Positions 1,762 through 53,209 of a stretch of DNA of 64,000 nucleotides are shown piece by piece. A model generated the notes under the pieces. It searched no databases, was not told the origin of the DNA, and was given only the letters and a program-made list of their open reading frames with translations. Location: assembly GCA_964573135.1 (NCBI GenBank), contig CAZNIO010000003.1:10881-74880 (forward strand), given 5' to 3'. A program made the position numbers and the translations under genes. The stretch comes from an uncultured Gammaproteobacteria bacterium (GTDB lineage: Bacteria; Patescibacteriota; Patescibacteriia; UBA2196; GWA2-42-15). How positions within the stretch are numbered: the stretch's first letter is position 1; the number at the start of each line of letters is the position of its first letter.

Positions 1762-1766
1762 ATATG

Positions 1767-3302: not shown

Positions 3303-3305
3303 GTG

Positions 3306-9380: not shown

Positions 9381-9811
9381 AAAATACTATTTAAAACAAG
9401 TGATATACACAATCCGAAAATAAATCCACTTATAATCTCAAAATATGTATGTCCACTAATATCCAATAATCTACCATCTTTAAAAACTCGCTTAACACCT
9501 TTAATACCACTTTTGACCCATGATTGCTGTTCTATTTCCTGTTTTTCTCTATCTTCTAAGAGATTGTAGATAAAAAGAAGCATAACAGTAAAACAAAAAC
9601 TAAAAATTGAGCTAAGGCCATAATCACACCAAATGAGATATAGAACGCCTGTCAATACAGCGGTGTGTGTACTGGGAGCACCACCAGCCCATTGATAAAC
9701 CCAAGTGGCTGTACGTAGCTTTTTCTTTCGTCGATTGGCTAATAATCTAACAATGAATTTCAATGATTGACTCAAAAACCAAATAATAACAGGAAATAGA
9801 ATAAACTTCAT
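9377..9811 (-). CDS. Divergent PAP2-family membrane protein
   Basis: Motifs WAGGAPSTHTA and SGHTYFE resemble divergent PAP2 (acid phosphatase/haloperoxidase-related). Four predicted TM segments. 4-nt overlap with the AMP phosphorylase start. Confidence 0.6.
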   Translation of the reverse strand: MKFILFPVIIWFLSQSLKFIVRLLANRRKKKLRTATWVYQWAGGAPSTHTAVLTGVLYLIWCDYGLSSIFSFCFTVMLLFIYNLLEDREKQEIEQQSWVKSGIKGVKRVFKDGRLLDISGHTYFEIISGFIFGLCISLVLNSIL

Positions 9812-9839
9812 AAATAGTTAGACTAAACTGATAATCATT

Positions 9840-12018: not shown

Positions 12019-12390
12019 TTATATTTCTTGTACATTTAAATTCGTAATGTTTTTAAAATCACGCACATTGCGTGTTATAAGAGTACTACTTGTGAAAAGA
12101 GCCGTAGCAGCGATTACACTATCTGCTGTTTTGGTCCCATACATCTGACGAAGGAGTCCGGCCGTGCGTGCAATTCTTGAGTCAAGTGGAATAATAGCAA
12201 CTGTTTCAAGCAGTTTTTCTATTTCCATTGATTCCCATGGGGTGAGACCATGAAAACCGAAAAGCTCAACCTCGGTTATTGTGGATATATATAACGGAGC
12301 GTTCTTAACTAAAATACCACCTAAAACAGAAACGACCGCTGGGTCGTCTTTTAAATAATAGATAATCGCATTGGTGTCTAGGGTGTGCAC
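12019..12390 (-). CDS. vapC: PIN-domain protein (VapC-like toxin)
   Basis: 123 aa. N-terminal MHTLDTNAIIYYL (conserved Asp), later acidic residues typical of PIN. Confidence 0.65.
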   Translation of the reverse strand: MHTLDTNAIIYYLKDDPAVVSVLGGILVKNAPLYISTITEVELFGFHGLTPWESMEIEKLLETVAIIPLDSRIARTAGLLRQMYGTKTADSVIAATALFTSSTLITRNVRDFKNITNLNVQEI

Positions 12391-16954: not shown

Positions 16955-17030
16955 GCGCTCATAGCTCAGCTGGTAGAGCAGCTCCCTTTTAAGGAGAAGG
17001 TCCTAGGTTCGAATCCTAGTGGGCGTACCA
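16955..17030 (+). tRNA. tRNA-Lys (anticodon TTT), CCA encoded
   Basis: Cloverleaf: acceptor GCGCTCA/TGGGCGT, D-arm GCTC/GAGC, anticodon loop CTTTTAA, T-arm CTAGG-TTCGAAT-CCTAG, 76 nt. Confidence 0.9.
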
Positions 17031-17062
17031 CAAAAAACATCTCGAGTAGAGGTGTTTTTTGG
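17031..17062 (+). terminator. Intrinsic terminator after tRNA-Lys (ACATCTC-gagta-GAGGTGT + T6)
   Basis: 7-bp hairpin followed by TTTTTT immediately after the CCA. Confidence 0.6.
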
Positions 17063-17090
17063 TTAAAGGGGATCTGCTAGTAGCTCCGTC
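17031..17090 (+). repeat. Direct repeat copy L (terminator + GGTTAAAGGGGATCTGCT module)
   Basis: About 55 of 60 nt are shared with 19180..19236 (aaaaa[a/g]cat[c]ctcg[a/c]g[t]agagg[g]tgtttttt[t]ggttaaa[g/a]gggatctgct[a/c]g[t/c]agctc). Confidence 0.7.
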
Positions 17091-17196
17091 TGGCGCGCCA
17101 CAGGTATTTTAGTGTTTTTTGATTCAAGCCCAAAGGTGCTGTATAATAACAGTGAAAGGTCGTGATTTAAATTATTAATCTTAAAATTATAATTTT

Positions 17197-17826
17197 ATGA
17201 AAAAATTAGGTTTTATTTTAATCTTAATGCTTTTGGTAGTCGGAGTTACGGTCACGGCCAATGCAGCTAGTAAGGCTCCGGGTAAAGGAGGTAGTGATAA
17301 ATGTACCACCATTCAAAGTGGTGAACTTTTAGCCTCTGATGGAACTGTAATCGAACTTGGCTTTGATGCTTGGGGATATAATTATCAAGGCCGTATGTTT
17401 AAAGGTGGTTATTGCGACGCTTATCGCGATGCAGCCTGGTGCCAAGAATGGACTGAGGATAAATTGGCCATGAAATGGAATGACGCTTGGTTATCAAATA
17501 AGGATTGTGACGGGGATGGTTTTCTTGATCGCCATTATGGCCATGATTCATATATTGGATCTGGCGCTTGGCTGACAAATCATCAATCAGGCGAATATGA
17601 AGAAGAAGGTGAAACATGTAAGTGGAATTACTTTGTCAAAATTGTGGCCGCTCCAGCTGACGCTTATGTTGAAGATGGTTATTGGCATACAGCAGAAGGT
17701 GCAGAAATTGGAGAGGTTATTTGGGGAGCTTTTGCTATTATTCAGGAAGTAGAAAATGATCCTTGCGCTGGAGCTCATGGCATGCAATATGTTTCTCCTG
17801 ATAGGGCGGGGCTAGGTAATTGGTAA
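17197..17826 (+). CDS. Secreted Cys/Trp-rich protein with a DxDxDG calcium-binding-like motif
   Basis: Signal peptide MKKLGFILILMLLVVGVTVTANA. Contains DCDGDGFLDRH. No known family. Confidence 0.6.
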   Translation: MKKLGFILILMLLVVGVTVTANAASKAPGKGGSDKCTTIQSGELLASDGTVIELGFDAWGYNYQGRMFKGGYCDAYRDAAWCQEWTEDKLAMKWNDAWLSNKDCDGDGFLDRHYGHDSYIGSGAWLTNHQSGEYEEEGETCKWNYFVKIVAAPADAYVEDGYWHTAEGAEIGEVIWGAFAIIQEVENDPCAGAHGMQYVSPDRAGLGNW

Positions 17827-17891
17827 AAAGGGATATATTAATAAGACCCACTCAAACAATTGAGTGGGTCTTTGACTACTTAAAAATGGCG

Positions 17892-17975
17892 TTAATAAAT
17901 CGTTTATGACACTGTAGGCATATAGATATATTCCTCACTTTTAGCAATTCTGGTTCTAACAGCGTCCACGACCCC
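17892..17975 (+). repeat. Repeat A copy 1 (conserved ~85-nt non-coding element; candidate sRNA)
   Basis: ttaataaa…tatgacactgtaggcatatagatatattcct… is shared with copies at 19091 and 20804. The 3' part differs in a 12-nt block. Confidence 0.7.
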
Positions 17976-17989
17976 ATAAAAATTATTAA

Positions 17990-18015
17990 ACCCCCTATTT
18001 TAGGGGGTTTTGAAG
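17990..18015. terminator. Bidirectional terminator (CCCCCT-atttt-AGGGGG + T-run)
   Basis: Perfect 6-bp GC stem with an A-run before and a T-run after. Serves Repeat A1/ORF 17197 (+) and the dehydrogenase gene (-). Confidence 0.65.
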
Positions 18016-18046
18016 TTGAGTAAAAGTACCTACAAGCTGGTGTGTC

Positions 18047-18997
18047 CTAGTTCACTTTATTTCTAGGCTTTTCCAAAATAAAAGACTGCAGATTCTCTAT
18101 AAGAATACCTTGTTGTTTTTCTATTGCCTCTTTGGTCTTTACTGCAATCGATGGATATAATATTACGTTTTTGGTTTTCATTAGCTTATTTTTATGTTCG
18201 CTTGGAATTGTGTCAAAATACGTTTGTATAAAGCAGAATCTATTTTCATTAAGATTCTTAATTAAGTTATCAAAATCAAAAACATCCGTATGGCTTATGG
18301 AAATTATTACTGAATTTTCTTTAATATTATTTAAGACAACCCCATTCATGATCGAATTTGTTGTTTTATCATCAGGAATAAACAATCCTATAATATCACT
18401 TTCCTTGCACAAATCATTAAGCTTACGAAATTGGATGCCTCCTTGCTCTAGATTTTCTTTTTTTGATTTGGAAAAATGTTTGACATTCATTCCTAAGCCC
18501 AGTGCAAGTTCAGCAACTCTTTTACCAATCCTGCCTAAACCAATAATGCCAAAGGTTTTGTTTTTTAATTCCCAGCCAAGATATTGGTCAACCCCAAAAT
18601 TATTCTTTTTAACATTGGCTCGCGCATTTTCTAGCTCTCTTGCACAGGAAAGCAAGGTAGCAAAAACAAATTCTGCAATACTATTATCACAATATCCCGC
18701 TGTGTTTGTCACAACAATATTTTTTGAAGCTGCATAATCAACATCAATTTTGCTAACTGAGATTGAATCAGTTCCTATATATTTTAAATTTAGAGCGAGG
18801 TCAATTATTTTTTTATTAATCTTAGTTAAGTATTTTATCAAAAGAACATCTGCATCTTTGACCTCTTTATATAAACTCTGTTTATTAGAACTGCTTACAA
18901 AAACCAAAAAAATTGATAGGGATTTTAATCTATCAAGAACATCATTTTTTAACGACTTTTTAGTGTAATCGATAAGGACAATTTTATTCACTTTCAT
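18047..18997 (-). CDS. D-isomer-specific 2-hydroxyacid dehydrogenase family protein (glycerate/phosphoglycerate dehydrogenase-like)
   Basis: Rossmann motif GIIGLGRIGKRVAELALGLGMNV. 316 aa is typical for the family. Confidence 0.75.
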   Translation of the reverse strand: MKVNKIVLIDYTKKSLKNDVLDRLKSLSIFLVFVSSSNKQSLYKEVKDADVLLIKYLTKINKKIIDLALNLKYIGTDSISVSKIDVDYAASKNIVVTNTAGYCDNSIAEFVFATLLSCARELENARANVKKNNFGVDQYLGWELKNKTFGIIGLGRIGKRVAELALGLGMNVKHFSKSKKENLEQGGIQFRKLNDLCKESDIIGLFIPDDKTTNSIMNGVVLNNIKENSVIISISHTDVFDFDNLIKNLNENRFCFIQTYFDTIPSEHKNKLMKTKNVILYPSIAVKTKEAIEKQQGILIENLQSFILEKPRNKVN

Positions 18998-19090
18998 TGG
19001 GTTACTGGCATTTAGTTGATGATTTAATTTTAGCTAAATTATGGGAAAGATGCAAAATTGTCAGGATCTACATTGTTTTTTGTATTGCAT

Positions 19091-19179
19091 AATTAATAAA
19101 GAAATTATGACACTGTAGGCATATAGATATATTCCTGACTTTCCTGGATTCTAGTTCTAACAGAGTCCACGACCCAGTA
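19091..19179 (+). repeat. Repeat A copy 2
   Basis: Identical to copy 3 over ~89 nt (aattaataaagaaattatgacactgtagg…gtccacgacccagta). Confidence 0.75.
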
Positions 19180-19236
19180 AAAAAGCATCCTCGCGAGAGG
19201 GTGTTTTTTTGGTTAAAAGGGATCTGCTCGCAGCTC
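19180..19236 (+). repeat. Direct repeat copy R (terminator CATCCTC-gcga-GAGGGTG + T7 + GGTTAAAAGGGATCTGCT)
   Basis: Near-copy of the tRNA-Lys 3' flank 17031..17090. The embedded hairpin + T-run is a terminator for Repeat A2. Confidence 0.7.
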
Positions 19237-19311
19237 AAAAAAATTGCCTAAACTTAATTTTTTATTTATACTTAAATGTATATATAATAATTAATTATCA
19301 ATAATAAAAGT

Positions 19312-20778
19312 ATGAAAAAATTTATTTTTATGGCCTTATGCATAATTTTGCCATTCAACAATATATCAGCTAATAACGAGGTTACATTAGAAATTATTAC
19401 TCCCAAAGAGGGGCAGTATCTTGCCGTAAACGACTCTATTACTTTTAGTTGGGTGCAAACAGGCTTAGATAAGCTAATGCTAGAAGCACAAATTTGTTGG
19501 CATGATGATATGCAGAGCTTATCCGCAGTAAAGGAAATACATTGTGCTGGAAATTCGGATATTACAAATGGGCTTATTGATGTCGACACTAATGCAAGCA
19601 ATAATTCATTTGAATGGCAACTCCCCAAAATGTTTAAGTCTGGTTTATATAAAATATGGGCTAAAGGTTATGCTAATACTGGGACAAGCGATTCTGTTTA
19701 TTTGGAAGATAAGATGAATCAATATGTAATAATAGATAAGGGAGACCAGAATTTTAGTTTAATTAATTCTACTAGTTTAAATAACATCAGTCAGAACAAG
19801 GTGATTGTTGATATTGGCACTAACAAGCTTTATGCAAATGCGTCAAGATATTTTGTTAGATGGAAAACTCCATGTAACGGCCAATACGCTAATGTCTGGC
19901 TGGTAGCAGAGGTTTTACAAGATGGAACCGAGATAGTTATTCCTATGACTTTTTATGAATGGCATTATGAAACGAATAAATTAAATTTAGATGTGTTCAA
20001 TAATAAGAATATATATTATGGATTAATTCCCGGTTCTGGAAGTACAGACAAAACTCAGCACCATCAATTACCTAGTGATCCCAGTTCGGGTAAGTTTAAT
20101 TTTGCACAAATTTTAATTAAAAGATCACCTGCGGGTGAATATTATACCGAACGAGTGTCTAGCAACTTATATACAAAAGGAAAAGAGCATTATAAGATAA
20201 GGGTTGATGTTCATGGTAACAATTGTTCAGCTACAGGATTAAGTAGATATATTTATCCTACTGCTGTTCTAGATGAACCTATACCATCGCTACCTTTGGA
20301 TAATGTTGTTAATGATTCCCCTGAGACAACCACTATCAGTGATAATAACAACACTTCGCCTAAACTAGTTGCAAAAAAAGCAACAATTGATAAAACATTG
20401 AGTAATAGGCTCAAAGGCAAACTCCTCCTCCAAGTCCAAAACCGTGGCCGTATTTGGTATGTAAATCCAGGTGACGCCAGGCGACATGAGGTAACATTCG
20501 CCAATGCTTTACCTTTATTCGAAAAGTTATCATTGGGTATTACTGATGCTGATTTAGATAAAATTCCAATGCACAATGATAATTGGACATCATCGATTGG
20601 TGATAGATTAAAAGGTAAAATACTCTTACAAGTACAAGATAGAGGAAGAATTTGGTACGTAGATTTCAATGGTAAAAAATGGGAAGTAACATGGAAAAAT
20701 TTAATGACGTTGTTTGAAAGTTTGGCTTTGGGTATCACTGATAGTGATTTGGATAAGATACAGATGGAGGGATTATAA
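19312..20778 (+). CDS. Secreted protein with two C-terminal ~55-aa tandem repeats
   Basis: Signal peptide MKKFIFMALCIILPFNNISA. C-terminal repeats LKGKLLLQVQNRGRIWYVNPGDARRHEVTFANALPLFEKLSLGITDADLDKI / LKGKILLQVQDRGRIWYVDFNGKKWEVTWKNLMTLFESLALGITDSDLDKI. Confidence 0.7.
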   Translation: MKKFIFMALCIILPFNNISANNEVTLEIITPKEGQYLAVNDSITFSWVQTGLDKLMLEAQICWHDDMQSLSAVKEIHCAGNSDITNGLIDVDTNASNNSFEWQLPKMFKSGLYKIWAKGYANTGTSDSVYLEDKMNQYVIIDKGDQNFSLINSTSLNNISQNKVIVDIGTNKLYANASRYFVRWKTPCNGQYANVWLVAEVLQDGTEIVIPMTFYEWHYETNKLNLDVFNNKNIYYGLIPGSGSTDKTQHHQLPSDPSSGKFNFAQILIKRSPAGEYYTERVSSNLYTKGKEHYKIRVDVHGNNCSATGLSRYIYPTAVLDEPIPSLPLDNVVNDSPETTTISDNNNTSPKLVAKKATIDKTLSNRLKGKLLLQVQNRGRIWYVNPGDARRHEVTFANALPLFEKLSLGITDADLDKIPMHNDNWTSSIGDRLKGKILLQVQDRGRIWYVDFNGKKWEVTWKNLMTLFESLALGITDSDLDKIQMEGL

Positions 20779-20803
20779 TTAAGAAATAATAGGATATTTT
20801 TTA

Positions 20804-20891
20804 ATTAATAAAGAAATTATGACACTGTAGGCATATAGATATATTCCTGACTTTCCTGGATTCTAGTTCTAACAGAGTCCACGACCCAGTA
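20804..20891 (+). repeat. Repeat A copy 3
   Basis: Identical to copy 2 through gacccagta. Followed by its own distinct terminator. Confidence 0.75.
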
Positions 20892-20894
20892 CCA

Positions 20895-20921
20895 AAAACC
20901 CCGACAAATGTCGGGGTTTTT
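20895..20921. terminator. Bidirectional terminator (CCCCGACA-aat-GTCGGGG, A-run/T-run)
   Basis: Perfect 8-bp stem. Downstream of Repeat A3 (+) and of hup (-). Confidence 0.7.
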
Positions 20922-20950
20922 ATATTATATACCGAATAGCTACACTCTTT

Positions 20951-33400: not shown

Positions 33401-33792
33401 CCTTGACCGCCTTCAAGAACCTTAAAAATATATTGAATAATGGCAAAAGCCATAAAGATGATAATCAGGCCAATGACGGTATTGACCAGTATTTTTTTGG
33501 CTTTCTCAATTTTCTCAGAATTGCCACCAGCAGTCATCCAGACAAAACCACCGTATATAATGAGGCAAAGGGCCACAATGCCGAGAACCCCCAAGATAGC
33601 GCGGATAATTCTGACAACAGAGATACGAATATCGGTGGTAGACAGGCCCGTACCTTGACCGTAATTAACGCCAAACATATCATCGCTTTGAGCTAAAGTA
33701 GCTTCAGGCAACAAAAAAACAACGGAAAAAATAACAATAAAAATTGCCGTTGTGAGGATAATAAAACGTTTGGGTTTTAAAATCTCTAGCAT
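27403..33792 (-). CDS. Giant (2129 aa) Cys-rich cell-surface protein with N-terminal double-TM pilin-like (VirB2/TrbC-like) segment and at least four IPT/TIG domains
   Basis: N-terminal signal plus two closely spaced TM helices (…ILGVLGIVALCLIIYGGFVWMTAGG…/…VIGLIIIFMAFAIIQYIF). IPT/TIG-like blocks (PYITHLSKDQGPIGDCLTLSGYCF, PCLWSINPDQGPPGTNLTLGGTRL, PVIQSLSPDNGPAGRWTTIQGCYF, ICSLSRYQGQPGDAVGISGSNFG). Over 100 Cys in CxxC/CxDxxC arrangements. Confidence 0.75.
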   Translation of the reverse strand: MLEILKPKRFIILTTAIFIVIFSVVFLLPEATLAQSDDMFGVNYGQGTGLSTTDIRISVVRIIRAILGVLGIVALCLIIYGGFVWMTAGGNSEKIEKAKKILVNTVIGLIIIFMAFAIIQYIFKVLEGGQGSNAPICQAQQCYGCSRCLDDGSGYLCDESCGITSAPCVCSIGPSMSEFVVDAVHTSHGAPLSNGLPEEKSNVHWCSKVQTIFNRNVDISTIVDAHNADNLKIAAIAGIQGIQQGNWDARSNVLVYSPLGSDGSSTFDNREVIAIGKKHNHEYDMPSSIEDASPEPLFLRSCSIGADCDEASSAGVQWNFFVGNEGDEVDPFIVSAYPRIDDANPDMNVSRDPVVDVTFSENIDATSILDVNGINPYPGRLYFQKVESDGSLTQIANNLIHLVIKNNGFRFYLEDPNLLDAFTAYQVTVQDVTDLCNNKMLEPVTWRFTTNDRVPGVAGYYPTGTNACPDTRTSITFNTSMYYDEVTLNIGVEGYGPSTYILAPDQDGKTSTTFDRSTSENILGEFRIVDVDGNNISNNYRVFEFIPTGGLVENTSYYVNVVTNKIINADRTALAKSWEFGVTDLSACVCAPYITHLSKDQGPIGDCLTLSGYCFTGTQEQPATIEYINFDSKDAQVGAGYSNRAVGTTVPAEFNQGDRPQVSLAINYSSGNNVPPSNSKEFYITPGEATGPCLWSINPDQGPPGTNLTLGGTRLLPLNVADLDGMTTSQVVFTPGVPFEVTDINNWTNDLIKGVIVPNGAKDGPAIINADHGQSNGIFFNVWECGDNVIDPGEECDLNNVPGECQDHGFVGGNLLCYSSGSTDPITGQDVSCYFDTTSCSNAPGVVENSQCLLVCDGGDNHGNRCFRDSDCQGTAPTLDGQCVIDVIPSANPFRNSRDACLNTIVSANFNIDLDPASVNSSNIFMQKCDDDTCQNVNSAHLATALTTAGSKSFRLDPDSNLAINTTYQVTITTGVSSLVDNVPMQNPYIWHFKTKNDAAPCPIERVYVEPPHYIINGANVAGNYRADAVAPLASTNCALISQEYDWQWGIDDPDLGVDAQEDGADDAHAIITSGTQAGSVYVRATNLDENKFARGSLNINIDSCRLAPGVCDQNCPGSVCDIEADRCTPVIQSLSPDNGPAGRWTTIQGCYFKSKGQSSSINFGSTQVSLYPCSSSWTDTQVIVEVPVVSQGSHVVTLTDAYGLNTVQSNNGNGNFTVTSNCNGITDNIPGICSLSRYQGQPGDAVGISGSNFGTTKDLVTFNNITAATSNWLDANISTQVPDSASTGDVIATVASCPSNGLKFTIAGGGEGAPCDSNLSNQPVCDADNNMCWQGFWCDPDANCTCQKSPSPSILSYSPTGTDACRNAMVSLTFDREMNLNSINSTTLKLEYLRTDGRGCDGQPPANVYNPTLKDRVIAFFRNLLSKESFAQSGTYCPVDGKVTAHNVNGKTVTYFRPSDLLGQPDSSVTHRIFVAGKSNGVKSVLGGIMENDYTDGLFTVGKNVCDINHVNVNITSGAGSDESTKEDTAYDYFTCVTRLNGCPDDVNPGVADNQHGYLATARDISDNLLVADFAWKENPSSQSLIILSATDTEEVEVTPVDQSGNTTLIVTGFDPDDGDPNYGSASQAITITNFICQNPWPSFDQAFPFNDSLSNCASGFCHDMTFSAFYCRDFGNSEKYCQDSGLACADDSDCPDNSDCPRGECVCLGSDTDDLPALAIPGTILGETNGTCIGGANHGAVCAGYGSCGLGYCRKVMKEFLFSFPQSQDNNTHWCENSLTPCQANQDCVANTSCQLNTDVVGIRIYSNSEHLSPSAWYKKYMGESGGHSMLKVDNYDALSVSQDTFIGTAVDTNPTAVDTNPTGSHNIFTNIFRISYSVKKGEENKIDELPNPITREVFQRFYKNFVFNANLGENLRLCTNSDTWCTKDSQCGTGSCQAPKDKLARDARRIGGIGEMSYHLELYRGHCSLSQNLACHTDSDCPEYIFDDPRSEICVASGATSYPTLSAGSYLQGQSVSLWDSWPSTLSSEIKASLLLDPLNEGTNCPDDVYNKECWDLEAKNFKCEPGSHMFHYKSGSNGNSYDLYANMEYSNTGWQPANSHYRTNFVQPCSPGTYNLIYNSIQSAY
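28197..28242. repeat. Tandem 21-nt direct repeat (~2.2 copies) inside the giant gene
   Basis: gggattagtatcaactgcagt x2 plus a partial third copy. Encodes TAVDTNP TAVDTNP in frame. Confidence 0.8.
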
Positions 33793-43636: not shown

Positions 43637-43911
43637 CTGGAAAATATTTCACCCATATTACCCTCCAATAGCGCAAGGATAATTAGGAAAACCTGACTAT
43701 CCTTAACTTGAGGCTACTCGATCCGGTTAGGAGGGGTTCCTTCACTTTCGCCACTATTAGAGGAAAATATAAGCAATATATATATTGATCAATTGTCAAA
43801 TTATATTAACATGAATTACAAAACTTGTCAAGTAGCGATAAACATGTTATATTAATTTATATTAAAAATGCTGTAAAAAGCGTTGTTTTTTAATAACTTT
43901 GACCCCGAAAA

Positions 43912-43986
43912 GGTCCCTTCGTCTAGTGGTTAGGACACTAGGTTTTCATCCTAGAAACAGGGGTTCGATTCCCCTAGGGACTACCA
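43912..43986 (+). tRNA. tRNA-Glu (anticodon TTC), CCA encoded
   Basis: Anticodon arm CTAGG-TTTTCAT-CCTAG, T-arm AGGGG-TTCGATT-CCCCT, acceptor GGTCCCT/AGGGACT (G1-U72). Confidence 0.85.
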
Positions 43987-43987
43987 A

Positions 43988-44020
43988 AGAGGACTCACTC
44001 GCAAGATTGGGTCTTTTTTG
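43988..44020 (+). terminator. Putative terminator after tRNA-Glu (imperfect hairpin + T6)
   Basis: aagaggactcactcgcaagattgggtctttttt is about 80% identical to the module after Repeat B2 (47088..47121). Confidence 0.4.
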
Positions 44021-44172
44021 ATTGGAATGTTAACGCAGGAAGTGATTTTCTAGCTTCAATTGAAATATAGATAAGTTGGTTGCAGAAAATATCTATGAAA
44101 TGTACACATTTGACAGATAAAAAAGTTTTATGTATACTTAAAATATATTGAATAATTAAAAAAGTTTTAAAT

Positions 44173-45378
44173 ATGATTAAAAAATACATCAAACGCCCTA
44201 TATACTTAGATCAAATTAAGCCCTTTATTGACAAGGATATTATTAAAGTTATCATCGGACAACGACGAGTTGGTAAAAGTTATTTGTTGTTCCAAATAAT
44301 GGATGAGATAAAAAAGAAAAATAAAACAGCTAATATTATTTATATCAACAAAGAATTAAATGAATTTGAAACAATAAAAAATGACAAAGACTTATTGGAT
44401 TATATTAAAAAAAATAATAAGAATAAGAAGAGTTATGTTTTTATTGATGAAATACAGGATATTCAAAATTTTGAAAAGGCCTTAAGAAGCTTGAAAGCTG
44501 AGGGGAAATATGATATCTACTGCACTGGCAGTAATGCTAATTTGCTATCAAGCGAAATAGCCACTTATCTTAGCGGTCGATATATTGAGATAAACGTTTT
44601 TGGATTAAGTTATGTTGAATTTTTACAATTTCATAATTTGAAGGAAGATACAGATTCATTTTTAAAATATATCAAATATGGTGGTTTGCCTTATTTAATA
44701 AATTTAGATTTAACTGACGAAATTGTTTATCATTATTTAAAAAGTATTTATAACACAATTCTATTGAAGGATGTTGTCAGCAGATTTAATATTCGTAATG
44801 TTTCATTTTTAGAAAGTTTAATTGACTACCTGGCTGATAATACTGGTAGCTTAGTTTCTTCTAAGAAAATTAGTGATTTTTTAAAATCACAAAAAATTAA
44901 TATTTCAACAAACATTGTCTTGGATTATTTATCTTTTTTAGCAAATGCATTCTTTATTTTCAAAGTCCAAAGATCTGAGGTACAGGGTAAAAAAATATTT
45001 GAAATTAATGATAAATATTACTTTGAAGATCTTGGGCTCAGACATTCCTTAATTGGTTATAAGCAGGTCGATATAAATAAGATTTTAGAAAATTTAGTTT
45101 TTTTACATTTACAAATTTTAGGCTACAAAGTAACAGTTGGGCAACTGAAAGAAAAAGAAATTGATTTTGTGTGTGAAAAAGAAAATAAAAAAATATATAT
45201 TCAAGTGGCTTACTTAATTAATGATAAAAATAAAGATAGGGAGTTTGGAAATTTATTACAAATCAAGGATAATTATCCTAAAATAGTTGTTTCAACTGAT
45301 GAATTAATAGACAACAGTGAATATAAAGGAGTAAAACATTTTAATATTAGAAATTTTTTAACCATAACATCTTTTTAA
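44173..45378 (+). CDS. AAA-family ATPase with DUF4143-like C-terminal domain
   Basis: Walker A GQRRVGKSY, Walker B …VFIDEIQ…. 401 aa, architecture typical of AAA_14+DUF4143 ATP-binding proteins. Confidence 0.7.
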   Translation: MIKKYIKRPIYLDQIKPFIDKDIIKVIIGQRRVGKSYLLFQIMDEIKKKNKTANIIYINKELNEFETIKNDKDLLDYIKKNNKNKKSYVFIDEIQDIQNFEKALRSLKAEGKYDIYCTGSNANLLSSEIATYLSGRYIEINVFGLSYVEFLQFHNLKEDTDSFLKYIKYGGLPYLINLDLTDEIVYHYLKSIYNTILLKDVVSRFNIRNVSFLESLIDYLADNTGSLVSSKKISDFLKSQKINISTNIVLDYLSFLANAFFIFKVQRSEVQGKKIFEINDKYYFEDLGLRHSLIGYKQVDINKILENLVFLHLQILGYKVTVGQLKEKEIDFVCEKENKKIYIQVAYLINDKNKDREFGNLLQIKDNYPKIVVSTDELIDNSEYKGVKHFNIRNFLTITSF

Positions 45379-45407
45379 GTTTGCTAAATTTTATACACTT
45401 TACAACC

Positions 45408-45479
45408 CTGGAATCACAAGATGCCACCTCCTAATATCCCCCACTATTTGTTTTAAATTCTTTAAACAATGGTCTACCA
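45408..45479 (+). repeat. Repeat B copy 1 (~72-nt conserved non-coding element)
   Basis: ctggaatcacaagatgccacctcctaatatcccccactatttgttttaaattctttaaacaatggtctacca. About 90% identity with copies at 47018 and 47989. Confidence 0.75.
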
Positions 45480-45500
45480 TTCCAGATTTCCCCTTAGATC

Positions 45501-45548
45501 GCCCGCCCCTTGGGCGGATGAATTCTCGGCGCTTCGCGCCGTTTTTTT
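45501..45548 (+). terminator. Tandem GC hairpins + T8 after Repeat B1
   Basis: CCGCC-ccttg-GGCGG followed by GGCGC-ttc-GCGCC, then gttttttt. Confidence 0.6.
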
Positions 45549-45807
45549 GTTTTATCTAATTTTTGAGAGTTGTTTGGTTTGAAAAGTTTTGTAAGTATGA
45601 AAATATAAGGTCGTCACTTGCTATTTACTTGGGACGACTTTTTTATTGTAAATTGGTTTAATCTTACGAAATTGCCCCTTATTTTAGAGGGTTTTGGGGT
45701 TGGGCAATGTGGACTTTTTCTATTGCATAATATATAATCAAGTCAGATAAAAATACATACAGACTCTAAGAAACAAGTAAGTAAATATCAATACAAATAA
45801 TACCCCT

Positions 45808-46803
45808 ATGATGATCAATAAAAGTACATATATTTTTGGTGGCGGAGATTCTGATGGATTGCTTGGCATTGCCACAATATTAAAAAAAGTAAATGATGCT
45901 TTTTTCTCTTTTACTTCCCCTAGAACCTTACATAGTCTAATCCATGATCTTGTAAAAGGAACTAACGGTAGTGTCTATATTGTAGATTTAGCAATAGATG
46001 CTTCAACATATAAAGATTTATTTAAAGAAATAGAAGGACGGCCTGGATTTGATAGTTATTTTTTTGACCAACATAATTTACCCGCTGGCGTATCCAAAGA
46101 GGACTTGCCGTTCACTGATTTATCAATTGATAGTGCGGTATCTAGCTGTGAAAATACATACGTTACAATTGGAAGCGATCTGGATCCTATAATTCCAGCC
46201 ATGGCTTCCTTAAATGACGGCATTTCTGATACTGAAAAAATAAGGGAAGCACAAAAAATTCATGGGGAGAAACTATATTCAAATGCTAAAATATTAAAAT
46301 TTGGTTTGGCATACAATATTAAAGATAATAAATTTAAACGTCAATTAGTGTATGATTTTAAAGAGGGCAAATATCCAGAATCTATTCCTGAATTAGTAGA
46401 TAGATACAAAAAAGGCCTTATACGGTGGGAAGAAATTAAAAAGATGGCTAATGAAAGGAAAAAAAGCCTTACACATCTAGCGTATGGTTTGTTCCCAAAT
46501 TTGAAAGGGGGGTTTACTAACTTACTAGCAGCATACCTAGCAGAAAGCACTGAAAAATTAGTTGGGGTTAGTATCCTTGAAACTGACCGCACCCTGCAAA
46601 AAATGAATATTATTTCAAATGATCCATCACTGAATATTGGTTTGTTTGTACATAAAGTAGCAAACAAATTTAATGGTTTTGGCGGGGGTAGTATTTCTAG
46701 CGCTGGGGCTACTTTACAGAAAAAGGAGACTACAAACTTTCTGCAAAACCTTAATAAAGAGATTGGAGATTATAAAAAATTATTAAAAAGCAATCAAGAC
46801 TAA
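45808..46803 (+). CDS. Hypothetical protein, possible DHH/DHHA1-like phosphoesterase
   Basis: N-terminal IFGGGDSDGLLG (DxD-like motif I), …VDLAID…, …FFDQHN… (degenerate DHH), C-terminal …FNGFGGGSIS… (DHHA1 GGGH-like). Weak assignment. Confidence 0.45.
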   Translation: MMINKSTYIFGGGDSDGLLGIATILKKVNDAFFSFTSPRTLHSLIHDLVKGTNGSVYIVDLAIDASTYKDLFKEIEGRPGFDSYFFDQHNLPAGVSKEDLPFTDLSIDSAVSSCENTYVTIGSDLDPIIPAMASLNDGISDTEKIREAQKIHGEKLYSNAKILKFGLAYNIKDNKFKRQLVYDFKEGKYPESIPELVDRYKKGLIRWEEIKKMANERKKSLTHLAYGLFPNLKGGFTNLLAAYLAESTEKLVGVSILETDRTLQKMNIISNDPSLNIGLFVHKVANKFNGFGGGSISSAGATLQKKETTNFLQNLNKEIGDYKKLLKSNQD

Positions 46804-46807
46804 AAAG

Positions 46808-46930
46808 ATGACCAGAAAAAACATTGAAATAATTTTACCAGAAGTATCGCAAGACACTATTAAGTACGACTTGCGCAAAATGAAAGAAAAAGGCTTAATT
46901 GTCCAAAGTGGTGAGTCTGTAAATACATAG
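46808..46930 (+). CDS. Small ORF (40 aa), possible winged-helix fragment or gene remnant
   Basis: MTRKNIEIILPEVSQDTIKYDLRKMKEKGLIVQSGESVNT starts 5 nt after the stop of the preceding gene and resembles the C-terminus of a wHTH regulator. Below the track cutoff. Confidence 0.25.
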   Translation: MTRKNIEIILPEVSQDTIKYDLRKMKEKGLIVQSGESVNT

Positions 46931-47017
46931 TATGAAGCTAATTTTTAGTTAAAAAAACTACCTAAAATTTAACCGCAATTAGAAGCGATCCCGAATAATT
47001 AATTAAGTATTTAATTC

Positions 47018-47087
47018 AGGAATCACAAAATACCATCTCCTAATATCCCCTACTATTTGTTTTAAATTCTTTAAACAGTGGTCTACC
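47018..47087 (+). repeat. Repeat B copy 2
   Basis: caggaatcacaaaataccatctcctaatatcccctactatttgttttaaattctttaaacagtggtctacca. Ends in CTACCA like a tRNA 3' end. Confidence 0.75.
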
Positions 47088-47093
47088 AAAGAA

Positions 47094-47121
47094 TACTCAC
47101 TCGTAAGAGTGGGTGTTTTTT
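47094..47121 (+). terminator. Intrinsic terminator after Repeat B2 (CACTC-gtaa-GAGTG + T6)
   Basis: Hairpin + T-run. The sequence resembles the tRNA-Glu flank. Confidence 0.5.
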
Positions 47122-47151
47122 GTTTAGGCTAATATTTATGCTATAATACAA

Positions 47152-47769
47152 ATGTTAACTAAATTAAACAGTATGAAAAAGTATTTTAAAAAATCTAATC
47201 CAAAAATAAAAATTAATACAATTTATGTTTTTATTGATGCTTCAAATGTCTGGAATGCGGTCAAGGCTGAAAAGAAATTTATTGAATACAAGAAGATTAA
47301 AAATTGGTTGAAAAAGAATTTTAATGCTACTAATGTTGAAATTTTTTATTATGATGCCTACCCCAAAGATGGGACAAGGGAATATAGCCTAGATGGTAAA
47401 CATAGATTTTTTACCTATCTAAAAAAAGGTCTCGGCTTCACGGTGCGTAAAAAAGAATTAAAAAGAATTACCATTACTAGTAAAGATGGGGAATCTATCA
47501 TGGAGAAAGGTAATATGGATATAGAGATGGTTATTGATGCGATCCATAATATGAATAAATATGATACTGCTGTTTTGTTTAGTGGAGATGCTGATTTTTT
47601 GGCACTAGTTAATTATTTAAAAAATGGTGGTAAAAAAGTCTATATTTTCTCCTCAAAAGATAATATATCTCGCGAACTTAAAACTGGCGGGAATGGATAT
47701 TTTGATGTAAGGGATATAAAAGAATTCTGGGGTAAGGATTTGAAATATCGTATAAATAAGCAAAAATAA
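47152..47769 (+). CDS. NYN-domain (LabA-like) putative ribonuclease
   Basis: …IYVFIDASNVWNA… and …VLFSGDADF… acidic residues, typical of the NYN/LabA-like PIN-related fold. 205 aa. Confidence 0.65.
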   Translation: MLTKLNSMKKYFKKSNPKIKINTIYVFIDASNVWNAVKAEKKFIEYKKIKNWLKKNFNATNVEIFYYDAYPKDGTREYSLDGKHRFFTYLKKGLGFTVRKKELKRITITSKDGESIMEKGNMDIEMVIDAIHNMNKYDTAVLFSGDADFLALVNYLKNGGKKVYIFSSKDNISRELKTGGNGYFDVRDIKEFWGKDLKYRINKQK

Positions 47770-47988
47770 AACCACCCTCAACTAAGAGGATGGCTCTAGG
47801 ATGTATAACCCTAACAGTTCTATGGAAGAACCGAAAGACATTATTAATATACACTTTTTTAATAAAAATGTCAAATTTCATCCACAGGGTGTCAAAATAG
47901 CATTATTATCAAATATTTATCTGATATATTAACTATATCAGATTATATCAATTTAAGGGATGTTAATGGTGAGCAATAGTCCGTAACT

Positions 47989-48059
47989 CAGGAATCACAA
48001 AATACCATCTCCTAACATCAGCCACTATTTGTTTTAAATTCTTTAAACAATAGTCTACC
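47989..48059 (+). repeat. Repeat B copy 3
   Basis: caggaatcacaaaataccatctcctaacatcagccactatttgttttaaattctttaaacaatagtctacc. Confidence 0.75.
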
Positions 48060-48249
48060 GAAGAAGACTTCTCCTCGCGAGTGGTCTTTTTTGATTTGTA
48101 GATTAGAAAAAAATAGAGTTTCTCAGTTTTTACGTGATTTATAGATTGAAATAAGGATTTGGTTTATTTCAATAAATGGCATATTATTACAACATAAATA
48201 ACGACATTGTAAAGATATAAATTATCAAGAAAAAACTATAAAATCTTTA

Positions 48250-48633
48250 GTGACAGCGATAAGTTATGTTGTTTCACTTATGGCTTTAGGTTTTATTTCA
48301 TTTCTTGTTTCCATCGGCTTATCTTGGAGTCGTTGTGATTTGAAATGCGAGGTATCTCACTTTTTATCTAGTGAGCTACTGGCTATATTTTTTTGGCCGG
48401 TGATGCTCATAGGCGACATTGATAACCTTGTTTTCGTATTGATTTTTTGTGCTCTTTTTAATATTCTTTTTGTTTATTTTATTTTGCGTTTAATTATAGC
48501 GAAGACGCGGTTGTCAAATAAACAAATTATTTTAATAATTATTATCGGTTCTTTGGTAATTGCTCCTATTTTACCGATTATTGGATTTAACAGTGAATTC
48601 TATCGCCAGTTTGTAATGGACTTCTGGTCTTAA
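48250..48633 (+). CDS. Small integral membrane protein (127 aa, GTG start)
   Basis: Four hydrophobic segments. No family assignable. Confidence 0.45.
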   Translation: MTAISYVVSLMALGFISFLVSIGLSWSRCDLKCEVSHFLSSELLAIFFWPVMLIGDIDNLVFVLIFCALFNILFVYFILRLIIAKTRLSNKQIILIIIIGSLVIAPILPIIGFNSEFYRQFVMDFWS

Positions 48634-48940
48634 AAGTCTTTTTTGATTTCGATTCAGTTGTGATTATTTTTTTACACACTATATCTAATTTTTAAATTGA
48701 CCTTATTTTTTATAATTGTCTGAAAAACTTCAATACCTCCTCCACCAAAGTTTTTCAAAGGAATAAGGCATATAAGCATCAGAGATTTTTTAAAAAGTAC
48801 TTCTTTTTAATATTGAGCAACCAAAACCCAATATCTGAAGCCATTTATGCAAGCCTATTGGCCTAACCCTATACACAACCTGCTTAGTCCTGCCAAGACC
48901 CTTGCAAAATACTATATTTATGCTAATGTTTAATCAATAG

Positions 48941-49008
48941 AAACAGTTTGTGATTCTGGTATTATAAAATACCGTTTTTTAATATCAGCGATTATTTGTT
49001 GCAAATTC
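48941..49008 (+). repeat. Partial/rearranged Repeat B-like segment immediately upstream of tRNA-Val
   Basis: …gattatttgttgcaaattctttaaataatgg matches the 3' half of Repeat B. Upstream tttgtgattctggtatt is the inverted form of the Repeat B 5' segment gaatcacaaa…atacc. Confidence 0.5.
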
Positions 49009-49009
49009 T

Positions 49010-49086
49010 TTAAATAATGGGGCACTTAGCTCAGTTGGCTAGAGCATCTCGTTTACACCGAGAGGGTCGGGGGTTCGAGTCCCTCA
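49010..49086 (+). tRNA. tRNA-Val (anticodon TAC), CCA encoded
   Basis: Acceptor GGGCACT/AGTGCCC, anticodon arm TCTCG-TTTACAC-CGAGA, T-arm GGGGG-TTCGAGT-CCCTC. Confidence 0.9.
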
Positions 49087-49117
49087 GTGCCCACCAGAAA
49101 AACTAACCCATGCTTAT

Positions 49118-50922: not shown

Positions 50923-50997
50923 GCGGGTGTCGTATAATGGTTATTATATTGGGTTGCCAATCCAAAGATGGCGGTTCGATTCCGCTCACCCGCTCCA
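50923..50997 (+). tRNA. tRNA-Gly (anticodon GCC), CCA encoded
   Basis: Acceptor GCGGGTG/CACCCGC, anticodon arm TTGGG-TTGCCAA-TCCAA, T-arm GGCGG-TTCGATT-CCGCT. Track ORF 50919..51113(-) is spurious. Confidence 0.85.
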
Positions 50998-51395
50998 ACT
51001 AAAAGCTTCTTTAATAGCTCTAATATTAGGGGAGTTTTTAGTTGGAATTTAAGTGGCTGGTAATGGGAATCAAACTTTTGCCTTATTTTATAAACCGCGC
51101 AATTTGACATCAAAATAAAGTCTTCTGGTTATATTTATTAAAATTAAGCTAATATTAGCTAAATTATTACTTTATGCTAACCGCGCAATTTGACATATAA
51201 CTTTTGATCTAAAAAAAGCATACCCTAATTACTTTTTAGATACAAAGGAATTCATTGCTTATCTTAACAAAATTGTAGACAAAAAATAATAAATTTTACA
51301 AAATAAGCTAAGCTTCTCCCTGCATAACAAACTCTGGAGAACAAATCCCCCCATCGAATTGTACTGTCACAGTTCTAACATCATTGACTAAAGAG

Positions 51396-51440
51396 CTCCA
51401 TCCAAAAAACTCTAGAAATTCTAGAGTTTTTTGGATGAAT
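51396..51440. repeat. Palindromic element copy 1 (AAAAAACTCTAGAA-A-TTCTAGAGTTTTTT with CCATCC/GGATG extension); doubles as a bidirectional terminator
   Basis: Near-perfect palindrome of about 40 bp. A second copy at 53141 has the centre base flipped (A vs T). Confidence 0.75.
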
Positions 51441-51480
51441 TGACATTGCCATACCCAATAAAAAATGGTATAATTACAAT

Positions 51481-51705
51481 ATGAAACAAGCTAAAAAATA
51501 TATAAAGTCATCATCTTTCTGGGATTATAAGATTGAGAAAAGGGCACTTAAAAATGAAAAAGTGAAAAAGTTTTGGTTGGCTAGAAAAATCAATATGGCG
51601 GACTGGCAAGGGATCAAGAAAAAAGACCTAGAAAAATATTTACCCGAACTTGATATCAGGCCGGAAATGAAAAATTTGTTAACTTTATTTTTGGAACATG
51701 CTTAA
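51481..51705 (+). CDS. Small hypothetical protein (74 aa), candidate AbiEi-like/antitoxin partner
   Basis: 8-nt overlap with the downstream AbiEii-like gene. Basic/charged. No clear motif. Confidence 0.4.
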   Translation: MKQAKKYIKSSSFWDYKIEKRALKNEKVKKFWLARKINMADWQGIKKKDLEKYLPELDIRPEMKNLLTLFLEHA

Positions 51706-52375
51706 GAATATTTTAAATCCAACACAGATAAAAGCATTAACTGCTATTGGCCAAAGCGAACTGGCTAAAATTTATTATTGGACTGGTGGTACTGCTTTGG
51801 CGTATAAATACTTAAACAATAGATTATCAGTTGACCTGGATTTTTTTAGTTATGATTTAATAGCAGATGAAGAGCTGTTGGCTTTGGTAAATAATATCAA
51901 AAAGCAATTAGGGGTTAAAAGAATTAAATTTTATAAGAATTTAAATCGTCAACAATTTATCCTTGATTTTGGCAATAAAATCAGCTTGCAACTTGAGTTT
52001 GTATATTTCCCCTTTGATAATATATCAAAACCAAAATCAGACCAGGATTTTAAGATTAAAGTTGATTCATTAGTTGATATGGCGACTAATAAAACGCTAG
52101 CTACTTATCAGAGAAATGAACCTAAAGATATTTTTGATTTATATTCCCTTTTAGAAACTAAAAAATTTAAATTGCCTGGGTTAATAAAAAATGTTAATAA
52201 AAAATTTGAAATAGAAATTGATGAAGCAGATTTGGAAGCAAAAATTTTAAGTAATATTGATTTATTGGAGAATATAAGGCCATTGATATTGAATAAGAGG
52301 AATTTCAAAATTGGCAAGATAGAAGCTTTTTTTACCAAGAAATCTGTTAACTATTTAAAGACGGTTATTTTTTGA
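51698..52375 (+). CDS. Nucleotidyltransferase of the AbiEii/AbiGii (DUF1814) toxin family
   Basis: …YYWTGGTALAYKYLNNRLSVDLDFFS… matches the hGGTAL…R.S.DLDF signature of type IV TA / abortive-infection NTases. Confidence 0.6.
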   Translation: MLKNILNPTQIKALTAIGQSELAKIYYWTGGTALAYKYLNNRLSVDLDFFSYDLIADEELLALVNNIKKQLGVKRIKFYKNLNRQQFILDFGNKISLQLEFVYFPFDNISKPKSDQDFKIKVDSLVDMATNKTLATYQRNEPKDIFDLYSLLETKKFKLPGLIKNVNKKFEIEIDEADLEAKILSNIDLLENIRPLILNKRNFKIGKIEAFFTKKSVNYLKTVIF

Positions 52376-52439
52376 TACCAAACCCTGTGTTGAGAACTAA
52401 AAATTGAGATGGTAATATTAAAAGCAAAAGTGATATACA

Positions 52440-53069
52440 ATGAATAAAATTCAACAAGCCAATCAAGAGTCTAGACATGGTAATAATTTGAATGATAAGA
52501 ATTTTAAGAGTGTGGCAGGACTCTATGAGAAGAGTTTAAAGTTTCCAGCCCAAAAATACCAAAAGCAGCTAATTATTTGCCCGATCGGACTTGTTAGTTC
52601 AGGAAAAACCACAGTCGTCAAGATTTTGTGTAAAAAGTTACCACTTTTGCGCGTTTCAACTGATGAGATTAGATTACTATTAAAAGAAAAAGAGTACAAT
52701 TTTACTAGGACACGTGAATTGGCTTGGCATATAATTAATAAATATTTAAAGCAGGGGTTCAGTATTGCCATTGATGCAGATTGTATTTCCGAAGAGGCAC
52801 GCAAATATATAAAAGATTTGGAAAAACAAACTAAAACCAAAGTTTTTTGGATTCATATTAACCCACCCCGGAGTTTTATTTTAAATAATTTAAGTAAACC
52901 TAAAAAAATATTCAAAAATACTGAACATGCATTGCGGGTTTATAAAATGCACAAAGTATTACATAATAAGATAAATTTTCCTTTTATATATATTTTTGAT
53001 ACGGCCAAAAATAATGTGATAGAACAAACCAAGGAGTGCGTGTTACTAATTAAGAAGGAATTAAGTTAA
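52440..53069 (+). CDS. P-loop NTPase/kinase (AAA_33/zeta-toxin-like fold)
   Basis: Walker A CPIGLVSSGKTTVVKIL. 209 aa. No further family resolution. Confidence 0.55.
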   Translation: MNKIQQANQESRHGNNLNDKNFKSVAGLYEKSLKFPAQKYQKQLIICPIGLVSSGKTTVVKILCKKLPLLRVSTDEIRLLLKEKEYNFTRTRELAWHIINKYLKQGFSIAIDADCISEEARKYIKDLEKQTKTKVFWIHINPPRSFILNNLSKPKKIFKNTEHALRVYKMHKVLHNKINFPFIYIFDTAKNNVIEQTKECVLLIKKELS

Positions 53070-53140
53070 CCAATTCATATGATTGAATTGTGGGATATAA
53101 GAATTGTGCCCTAAGCGGAGTAATATTAGTTCTAGCGACC

Positions 53141-53180
53141 TCCGCCAAAAAACTCTAGAATTTCTAGAGTTTTTTGAATA
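53141..53180. repeat. Palindromic element copy 2 (AAAAAACTCTAGAA-T-TTCTAGAGTTTTTT)
   Basis: Same 30-bp core as 51396..51440 with the complementary centre base, consistent with inverted orientation. Between convergent genes. Confidence 0.75.
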
Positions 53181-53209
53181 GGCGAATAAAATCATTATAA
53201 CCTCATTTT

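Follow-up and report, generated by a model that had tools for sequence, protein, structure and literature searches.

A 64,000-nt stretch of contig CAZNIO010000003.1 (assembly GCA_964573135.1; hereafter the window), from an uncultured bacterium of the Patescibacteriota, carries a 5.0-kb island between its tRNA-Glu and tRNA-Val genes that is divided into four units by copies of a short repeat, here called Repeat B. With middling confidence, we read Repeat B as a cassette boundary at the DNA level, i.e., a joint of the attachment-site (att) type in a small tRNA-linked island that would have grown by serial site-specific integration, with the recombinase supplied in trans or since lost, and not as an RNA gene. 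Bacteria of the candidate phyla radiation (CPR, or Patescibacteria) have very small genomes, and little is understood of the way in which they gain accessory genes. A preliminary description of the window, made from the sequence alone, had offered several explanations of the repeat, among them a degenerate tRNA-like small RNA and a tRNA-flank duplication or recombination site that organizes single-gene cassettes.

Anatomy of Repeat B and its junctions

A repeat search (family D1) identified four direct copies of Repeat B in register (45403-45488, 47012-47097, 47984-48069 and 48951-49036), all in the same orientation and confined to a single 3.6-kb stretch. Over the first 69 nt, copies 1-3 share 86-90% ungapped identity with one another and copy 4 is 70-75% identical to them, with z-scores of 13-15 for the match of copy 4 to the other three. 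A 26-nt degenerate pattern of the repeat core matched at exactly these four sites, where zero matches were expected in shuffled sequences. The three copies of about 90% identity reported in the preliminary description are therefore real, whereas the fourth, which had been taken for a rearranged and partly inverted remnant, is essentially a direct copy (48951-49019) in which only ~13 nt at the 5' edge (TTTGTGATTCTG) can also be matched, in inverted orientation, to the 5' end of Repeat B. Copies 1-3 terminate in CTACC(A/G), matching the last 6 nt of tRNA-Glu. Copy 4 consists of the arm only, lacks CTACCA and ends flush with tRNA-Val, its last base being 49019 and the first base of the tRNA gene 49020. 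Because the Repeat B region recurs at 100% identity in contigs of independent JGI, ENA and Logan assemblies (several samples), it is not an assembly duplication, an artefact that the preliminary description had considered.

The ~40 nt that follow CTACC(A/G), comprising AAGA, a hairpin and a T-run (together designated T1), are homologous to the flank of tRNA-Glu behind copy 2 (z = 16) and copy 3 (z = 11.5), whereas copy 1 is followed by an unrelated GC-rich double hairpin (z = -0.3 against the tRNA-Glu flank). The earlier claim that the 3' end of Repeat B mimics the 3' end of tRNA-Glu plus its flank thus holds for copies 2 and 3 and fails for the flank of copy 1. When a T1 profile was run against the window using nhmmer, it matched only at 43981-44027, 47082-47129 and 48054-48101, always directly behind CTACC(A/G). 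Terminator-like hairpins were found behind copies 1-3 (45527-45541, 47098-47115; folds), in keeping with the hairpin and T-run originally noted after each copy, and the proposed order of gene, repeat, terminator and gene agrees with the open reading frame (ORF) and Pfam maps.

Read from left to right, the array is composed of tRNA-Glu-CTACCA-T1 / cargo 1 / Repeat B-CTACCA-X / cargo 2 / Repeat B-CTACCA-T1' / cargo 3 / Repeat B-CTACCG-T1'' / cargo 4 / Repeat B / tRNA-Val, with X being the GC-rich flank of copy 1. Across these junctions CTACC(A/G) is constant and the sequences on its two sides vary independently, the left side being either tRNA-Glu or the Repeat B arm and the right side either T1 or the unrelated GC-rich flank. 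On sequence grounds, this composition is the pattern of a recombination core, and the tRNA-Glu edge, copies 1-3 and copy 4 have the look expected of an attL (B-O-P'), three attP-like joints (P-O-P') and an attR (P-(O)-B') of a head-to-tail array. We infer, as a robust reading of the junctions, that Repeat B would be the right-end sequence of the inserted units and that Repeat B-CTACCA-T1 would mark where the right end of a unit meets the left end of its downstream neighbor. Each internal copy is made up of a ~66-nt arm, the last 6 nt of tRNA-Glu and a downstream terminator, which bears out the earlier suggestion of a tRNA-flank duplication or recombination site between single-gene cassettes.

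The locus in related genomes

Judged by Pth, which is encoded just upstream of the island, the nearest relatives (70% identity) belong to Candidatus Kuenenbacteria. Useful relatives were obtained by exact-protein look-ups, and a Pth scan of metagenome contigs returned only distant relatives (≤56% identity) without synteny. The gene order of one relative (L017; GCA_043823865.1) matches that of the window, with pth, tRNA-Glu, tRNA-Val, an 83-aa ORF and tRNA-Ala followed farther on by inositol monophosphatase, tRNA-Gly and mnmA. The distance between tRNA-Glu and tRNA-Val is 175 nt in L017 and 262 nt in a second Kuenenbacteria relative (L102), and it is exactly this interval that the array fills in the window, a further point in favor of the cassette suggestion. 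Neither T1 nor Repeat B was detectable at the locus in L017 and L102, from which the island is absent; both ends of the array therefore look imported.

L017 contains a perfect 25-nt (25/25) direct repeat of the tRNA-Glu 3' end located 3 nt before tRNA-Val, with the two copies 168 nt apart. The duplicate extends from the T-loop to 5 nt past CCA and brackets an insert of ~143 nt without a gene, and it is a classical att-type duplication at the tRNA-Glu/tRNA-Val site. It resembles the Repeat B island in its locus, its clade and its arrangement as a direct repeat that overlaps the tRNA-Glu 3' end around inserted DNA. It differs in that the repeated sequence is a classical tRNA fragment, with neither a Repeat B-like arm nor T1. 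Homology of Repeat B itself to the tRNA-Glu/tRNA-Val spacers of relatives was rejected, as a tempting local alignment was not significant (z between -1.3 and +0.9).

Cargo and composition of the island

The four units are 1.0-1.6 kb in size, contain a single gene each, all on the plus strand, and share no cargo homology with one another. The GC content of the island is 24-35%, compared to 35-39% in the flanks. The ATPase of cassette 1 (GC 24-29%) matches the PADLOC defence candidate PDC-S01 over its full length (E = 1e-146), and the NYN gene of cassette 3 is preceded by an extended -10 element (TGCTATAAT, 47139-47147) as read from the sequence. For the DHH-like protein of cassette 2, only nine homologues were found; the one of 61% identity has archaeal-looking surroundings, and those with 61-65% identity include one on a contig with RadA, RPA and HxlR-type neighbors. 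An 83%-identical homologue (L111) has the ORF alone in common with the island, with no repeat and no tRNA nearby, which argues that Repeat B belongs to the locus or the integration system and not to the cargo. On the same comparison, the possibility that Repeat B travels with its cargo was ruled out. The coordinates of all features are compiled in Table 1.

Table 1 Features of the Repeat B island and of the parallel Repeat A island, in window coordinates.
Feature	Position	Strand	Basis or remark
tRNA-Lys island: tRNA-Lys (16955-17030), terminator and flank, three cargo units with Repeat A	16955..20930	+	Repeat families D2 and D11
Repeat A (102 nt), three copies	17882-17983, 19083-19184, 20795-20896		
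tRNA-Glu(UUC), left island border	43912..43986	+	ARAGORN; Rfam RF00005, 66.9 bits; CTACCA at 43981-43986
Putative attL-type segment: CTACCA, AAGA and intrinsic terminator (T1)	43981..44027	+	Homologues flank copies 2 and 3
Cassette 1: AAA_14/DUF4143 ATPase	44173..45378	+	Pfam; promoter-like TTGACA-17-TATACT at 44110-44138
Repeat B copy 1 (arm and CTACCA)	45403..45479	+	Joined to an unrelated GC-rich flank, not T1-like
Two GC-rich hairpins, the second with a T-run	45500..45548	+	Terminator scan (45527-45541) and fold; terminator behind copy 1, left end of cassette 2
Cassette 2: DHH/DHHA1-like protein and 40-aa winged-helix fragment	45808-46803, 46808-46930	+	Pfam; promoter-like site at 45710-45738
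Repeat B copy 2 (arm and CTACCA)	47012..47088	+	
T1': CTACCAAAGA and terminator	47082..47129	+	37/43 aligned positions identical to the tRNA-Glu 3' end and flank
Cassette 3: NYN (LabA-like) nuclease-domain protein	47152..47769	+	Pfam (E = 7e-23); weak PADLOC NYN match
Repeat B copy 3 (arm and CTACCG)	47984..48060	+	
T1'': CTACCGAAGA and terminator	48054..48101	+	Homologue of the tRNA-Glu flank
Cassette 4: 127-aa predicted membrane protein	48250..48633	+	No family match
Repeat B copy 4 (putative attR-type, arm only)	48951..49019	+	Ends at the first base of tRNA-Val
tRNA-Val(UAC), right island border	49020..49096	+	ARAGORN; Rfam

Assessment of Repeat B as an RNA

Several features of Repeat B would suit a functional RNA element, either a module of the 3' untranslated region involved in mRNA stability or processing (perhaps as a tRNA-like substrate of RNase P, RNase Z or the CCA enzyme) or a multi-copy small RNA gene. 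On the coding strand, the repeat always comes after a stop codon and before a terminator, its CTACCA terminus is tRNA-like, and some blocks (TATTTGTT and AAATTCTTTAAA, for example) do not vary among the four copies. However, only the five true tRNAs of the window were identified by ARAGORN, none of them at a Repeat B copy, and Rfam searches at gathering thresholds and then with cmscan at E ≤ 10 over 45300-49030 produced no tRNA or other Rfam match at Repeat B. The relaxed tRNA search of the copies that the preliminary description had proposed, run here as the cmscan at E ≤ 10, thus returned no tRNA, and Repeat B was dismissed as a tRNA-like or known RNA on the strength of these empty Rfam and ARAGORN results. 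Repeat A, an unrelated repeat at tRNA-Lys that is described below, likewise had no tRNA match using cmscan at E ≤ 10.

Folding likewise gave no support to an RNA role. The 70-nt element folds no better than its shuffles on either strand (z = +0.3 and -0.5), and RNAalifold of the four copies yielded -1.4 kcal/mol with 10 pairs and zero compensatory changes, a comparison that has little power as it includes only four sequences. In copy 4, one predicted pair of the consensus fold is broken and two are gapped. The internal AU hairpin singled out in the preliminary description accordingly contributes almost nothing (no compensatory change in the -1.4 kcal/mol consensus, and pairs lost in copy 4), and Repeat B was dismissed as a structured RNA because neither the single-sequence folds nor RNAalifold gave a signal. 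With no ARAGORN or Rfam match even at E ≤ 10 and no stable or conserved fold, the degenerate tRNA-like small RNA was abandoned. It also counts against an RNA element that copies 1-3 contain no internal promoter-like site, that copy 4 is followed by a tRNA and not by a terminator, and that no copy lies outside the island in the window or in relatives. Taken together, we regard an RNA function of Repeat B as improbable.

The body of the repeat may nonetheless have a tRNA ancestry. In a collinear alignment with tRNA-Glu, copies 1 and 2 scored z = 2.2-2.3 (p ~0.03) and copies 3 and 4 scored lower, and when copy 2 was compared to 55 tRNAs the four best matches were all tRNA-Glu of Kuenenbacteria, which is suggestive of descent of the Repeat B body from a tRNA-Glu-like sequence. 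Copy 4 diverges from copies 1-3 at the point where a promoter-like site arises (TAGAAA-16-TGgTATTAT, 48938-48965) that copies 1-3 do not have. This site fits a role of copy 4 as promoter and leader for tRNA-Val, which we consider likely.

Searches for a recombinase and for further copies

A number of results weigh against serial site-specific integration. No integrase, recombinase or transposase domain was found in the window using Pfam, either in the four cargo proteins and the other ORFs of at least 90 aa or in the Pfam annotation of contig genes. The exact match between the repeat and the tRNA is only 6 nt long; an Islander-style BLASTN (word size 7) with tRNA-Glu alone detected no displaced tRNA fragment at any copy, and a search for tRNA 3'-end sequences at the repeats likewise revealed no classical displaced fragment. 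Other assemblies of the same lake population contained the linear array only, with no empty site, circular junction or cassette-number variant. As copy 4 has no CTACCA core, an additional deletion must be assumed, and single-gene units of 1.0-1.6 kb are smaller than any autonomous integrative element.

Furthermore, a copy of Repeat B was found in none of the public collections searched, and mobility is therefore unproven. The nhmmer profile of Repeat B identified no copy outside 45403-49022 in the window and none in relatives. Its exact degenerate pattern gave a single chance match among genome contigs (a Clostridiales contig) and zero matches among metagenome contigs, three Repeat B patterns gave seven seed-only chance matches or none among viral contigs, and blastn of the whole island against phages and plasmids returned nothing relevant. 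The preliminary description had suggested a genome-wide search for further copies; the searches made here, which covered the window, relatives and genome, metagenome, viral, phage and plasmid collections, produced none beyond the four. Since the 64 kb hold no recombinase and the repeats no classical tRNA fragment, site-specific recombination in trans is a mechanism that we infer.

Alternative origins of the array

One alternative is an origin that does not involve a recombinase. Here, a single illegitimate or short-homology exchange between the 5' border of tRNA-Val and the 3' border of tRNA-Glu (GGGCACT versus GGGACT) would have produced a tandem duplication of the segment between the two tRNA genes, with the Repeat B/CTACCA-T1 joint, unequal homologous recombination would have amplified it, and the cargo would have been swapped later through T1 and Repeat B homology, so that the repeats would be passive scars and homology arms and no dedicated enzyme would act on them. 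The joint is exactly the right end of the interval fused to its left end, the window contains no recombinase, no tRNA fragment of classical att length is present, and the repeats are limited to a single locus, all of which agree with such a history. However, the units share no cargo homology, so a complete gene replacement would be needed in every duplicate, and T1 and Repeat B are missing at the locus in relatives, which makes them unlikely native flanks. Homologous recombination would also be inefficient between arms that are only 66-77 nt long and 86-90% identical. In addition, copy 1 keeps CTACCA and switches to an unrelated flank precisely where the tRNA-like core stops, a break that a crossover at a defined site explains better. 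Overall, we consider this recombinase-free origin unlikely, although it retains real weight.

Repeat B is also short, multi-copy and intergenic, properties it shares with non-autonomous miniature inverted-repeat transposable elements (MITEs) and repetitive extragenic palindromic (REP) sequences, and insertion sequences (IS) of the rve family adjoin these same tRNAs in strain variants and relatives. A MITE- or REP-like element that by chance inserted several times in this region would, however, be expected to show different traces. The borders of the copies have neither terminal inverted repeats nor target-site duplications, the copies lie in one orientation within one 3.6-kb stretch and occur nowhere else in the 64 kb or in relatives, and their right borders are fused to a homologue of the tRNA-Glu flank, which independent transposition would not be expected to produce. 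This explanation is highly improbable.

Variants at the tRNA borders

The variants seen in two contigs, L012 and L014, are not cassette-boundary events. In L012 (1-874), only 2 nt separate tRNA-Glu from the end of an upstream rve-type IS, which carries an outward TTGACT-17-TATACT. An rve-type IS also lies directly behind tRNA-Glu in L101 (9139-10381), and a similar IS end lies behind tRNA-Val in L102 (9475-9872). Such IS elements occur both in strain variants and in relatives, and it seems that insertions are generally directed to tRNA borders in this clade. Over the stretch from the DHH-like gene to NYN, copy 2 included, the ENA contig L014 (1171-1448 versus window 47771) matches the window at 100% identity, but immediately behind the stop codon of NYN it switches to the sequence upstream of rpsF and the beginning of that gene. 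Either a co-occurring strain is genuinely rearranged here or the contig is a chimera. In the JGI contig L108 (1222-2395), the locus is joined via tRNA-Ala to a 23S rRNA operon, an assembly chimera. Contig ends at tRNAs are therefore not evidence of island variability, and contig breaks at tRNAs were set aside as an unreliable sign of variability in the population.

Proposed mechanism of island growth

Under serial site-specific integration, the 5.0-kb interval would be a head-to-tail array of four horizontally acquired single-gene units, each beginning with the last 6 nt of tRNA-Glu and T1 and ending with the ~66-nt Repeat B arm. Small circular cassettes would integrate one after another, site-specifically, at the 3' end of tRNA-Glu, with the Repeat B/CTACCA/T1 joint serving as the cassette attP, CTACCA as the presumed place of crossover, and a recombinase that would be encoded elsewhere in the genome or would since have been lost. 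A later deletion of ~13 nt would have taken the core from copy 4. The arms would keep the split tRNA pair expressed, as T1 would terminate tRNA-Glu and each upstream cassette transcript and copy 4 would supply the promoter and leader of tRNA-Val.

A parallel island at tRNA-Lys

A second island in the window follows a similar plan with an unrelated 102-nt repeat, Repeat A. Its three units carry, respectively, a 209-aa secreted protein, a 2-hydroxyacid dehydrogenase (encoded on the minus strand) and a 488-aa protein. The 3' end of Repeat A, CCCAGTA(CC)A, matches the GTACCA end of tRNA-Lys, and its second copy is followed by a terminator and flank as found behind tRNA-Lys (local alignment score of 70 over 89 nt; family D11). 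The body of Repeat A resembles tRNA-Val(UAC) (z = 4.3-4.5) with 5/7 acceptor-stem pairs kept. A profile search of the window and relatives found no copies of Repeat A elsewhere. Finding one architecture with two unrelated repeats lends support to a process that acts generally at tRNA borders. The idea that Repeat A and Repeat B are parts of one "leader + tRNA-Val" unit proved unsupported.

Other observations in the window

A third tRNA-adjacent islet (50923-53200) contains tRNA-Gly followed by a unit of three genes (a 74-aa ORF, an AbiEii toxin and an AAA_33 kinase-like protein), and this unit is bracketed by two copies of a 35-nt palindromic sequence that resembles a bidirectional terminator (51400-51434 and 53145-53179). 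Between tRNA-Gly and mnmA, L017 has only a 78-aa ORF.

A non-coding block of ~125 nt lies between pth and the tRNA-Glu promoter in the window (43650-43775), L017 (769-890) and L102 (8690-8810). Most of its alignment columns are identical across the three Kuenenbacteria genomes, although their Pth proteins are only 61-70% identical to that of the window. The block forms a long rod-like hairpin (RNAalifold, -33.7 kcal/mol, 44 pairs, two of them compensatory) and has no Rfam match at E ≤ 10. From this modeled fold it is a candidate lineage-specific structured RNA, which could lie on either strand.

On the minus strand, 7884-12001 encodes in a row a Glycos_transf_3 protein (AMP/nucleoside phosphorylase-like), a RuBisCO large subunit and an IF-2B-family protein (ribose-1,5-bisphosphate isomerase-like), a trio that we take to be the nucleotide-salvage RuBisCO pathway known from CPR bacteria and archaea. 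A DUF212 gene lies among the trio and a PIN-domain gene next to it (12019-12390). Also on the minus strand, a giant ORF of 2129 aa (27403-33792) has T4SS_pilin and Big_5 domains (Pfam) and is kept beside yqeY in the relatives L101 and L103, and three neighboring ORFs (688-4244) divide pyruvate phosphate dikinase-like functions among them, one with PPDK_N (3306-4244) and two (1767-3302 and 688-1761) each ending in a PEP-utilizers mobile domain.

Significance and comparison with known systems

If the repeats are active recombination sites, the locus would show how defence or accessory genes can be stacked one at a time beside tRNA genes in a compact form, with no resident integrase and with the split tRNA pair still expressed. 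If they are only scars, the island would still be a clean and precisely delimited case of tRNA-border island growth in a CPR genome. In practical terms, detectors that look for a tRNA fragment and an integrase miss such islands, as arm and terminator sequence makes up most of the repeated unit.

By analogy, the closest known systems appear to be tandem tRNA-linked islands such as the tycheposon islands of Prochlorococcus, with integron cassette arrays comparable in formal layout only. Islands that arise from successive integrations at a tRNA and are separated by att copies are documented, and degenerate remnants of such islands without an integrase have been described (bioRxiv 10.1101/2020.12.28.424599; PMC4383910). 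Like tycheposon and Islander islands, the Repeat B island starts at the 3' end of an intact tRNA gene (tRNA-Glu, 43912-43986) and consists of co-oriented successive units with direct repeats between them that contain the 3' terminus of the tRNA; its cargo is accessory or defence-like, its GC content is below that of the flanks, and the locus is empty in relatives. Unlike those islands, it has no integrase in any unit or within the 64 kb, the repeat and the tRNA have only 6 nt in common, with the remainder formed by the ~66-nt arm and ~40 nt of downstream terminator, and the array stops precisely at the 5' end of the next tRNA. Viewed against the Islander definition of tRNA-gene (tDNA) islands (PMC4383910), it has an intact tRNA at one end, is absent from relatives and is foreign in composition; BLASTN found no displaced end-fragment of the cognate tRNA, and Pfam no tyrosine integrase in the island. 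Islander also discards candidates of <2 kb (PMC4383910), whereas the units here measure 1.0-1.6 kb.

Integron arrays (attI/attC, IntI) are similarly built from co-oriented single-gene cassettes with a recombination-site-like repeat of ~70-120 nt at each 3' end, and they share the implied circular intermediate of one gene and one site. In contrast to integrons, the window contains no IntI or other integrase, and Repeat B has neither an attC-like imperfect palindrome nor R''/R' (RYYYAAC/GTTRRRY) boxes and folds significantly on neither strand. The Repeat B cassettes also bear promoter-like sites and terminators of their own and are inserted at a tRNA border instead of attI. A bolder extension, to which we give rather little credence, is that Kuenenbacteria possess an integron-like cassette system with the integrase acting in trans, in which small circular, defence-enriched single-gene cassettes would be captured successively at the border of two adjacent tRNA genes, each bringing a recombination site of ~115 nt, and in which tRNA-Glu/tRNA-Val (Repeat B) and tRNA-Lys (Repeat A) would represent two specificities. 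One arm of such a site may terminate the upstream tRNA or cassette while the other may promote the downstream tRNA.

A further parallel is provided by integrative mobile elements exploiting Xer (IMEX), which rely on recombinases of the host, such as XerCD acting at dif, and are able to accumulate in tandem. As in IMEX arrays, the units of the Repeat B island encode no recombinase and follow one another head-to-tail at a single place in the chromosome; the target here, however, is the 3' end of a tRNA gene and not dif.

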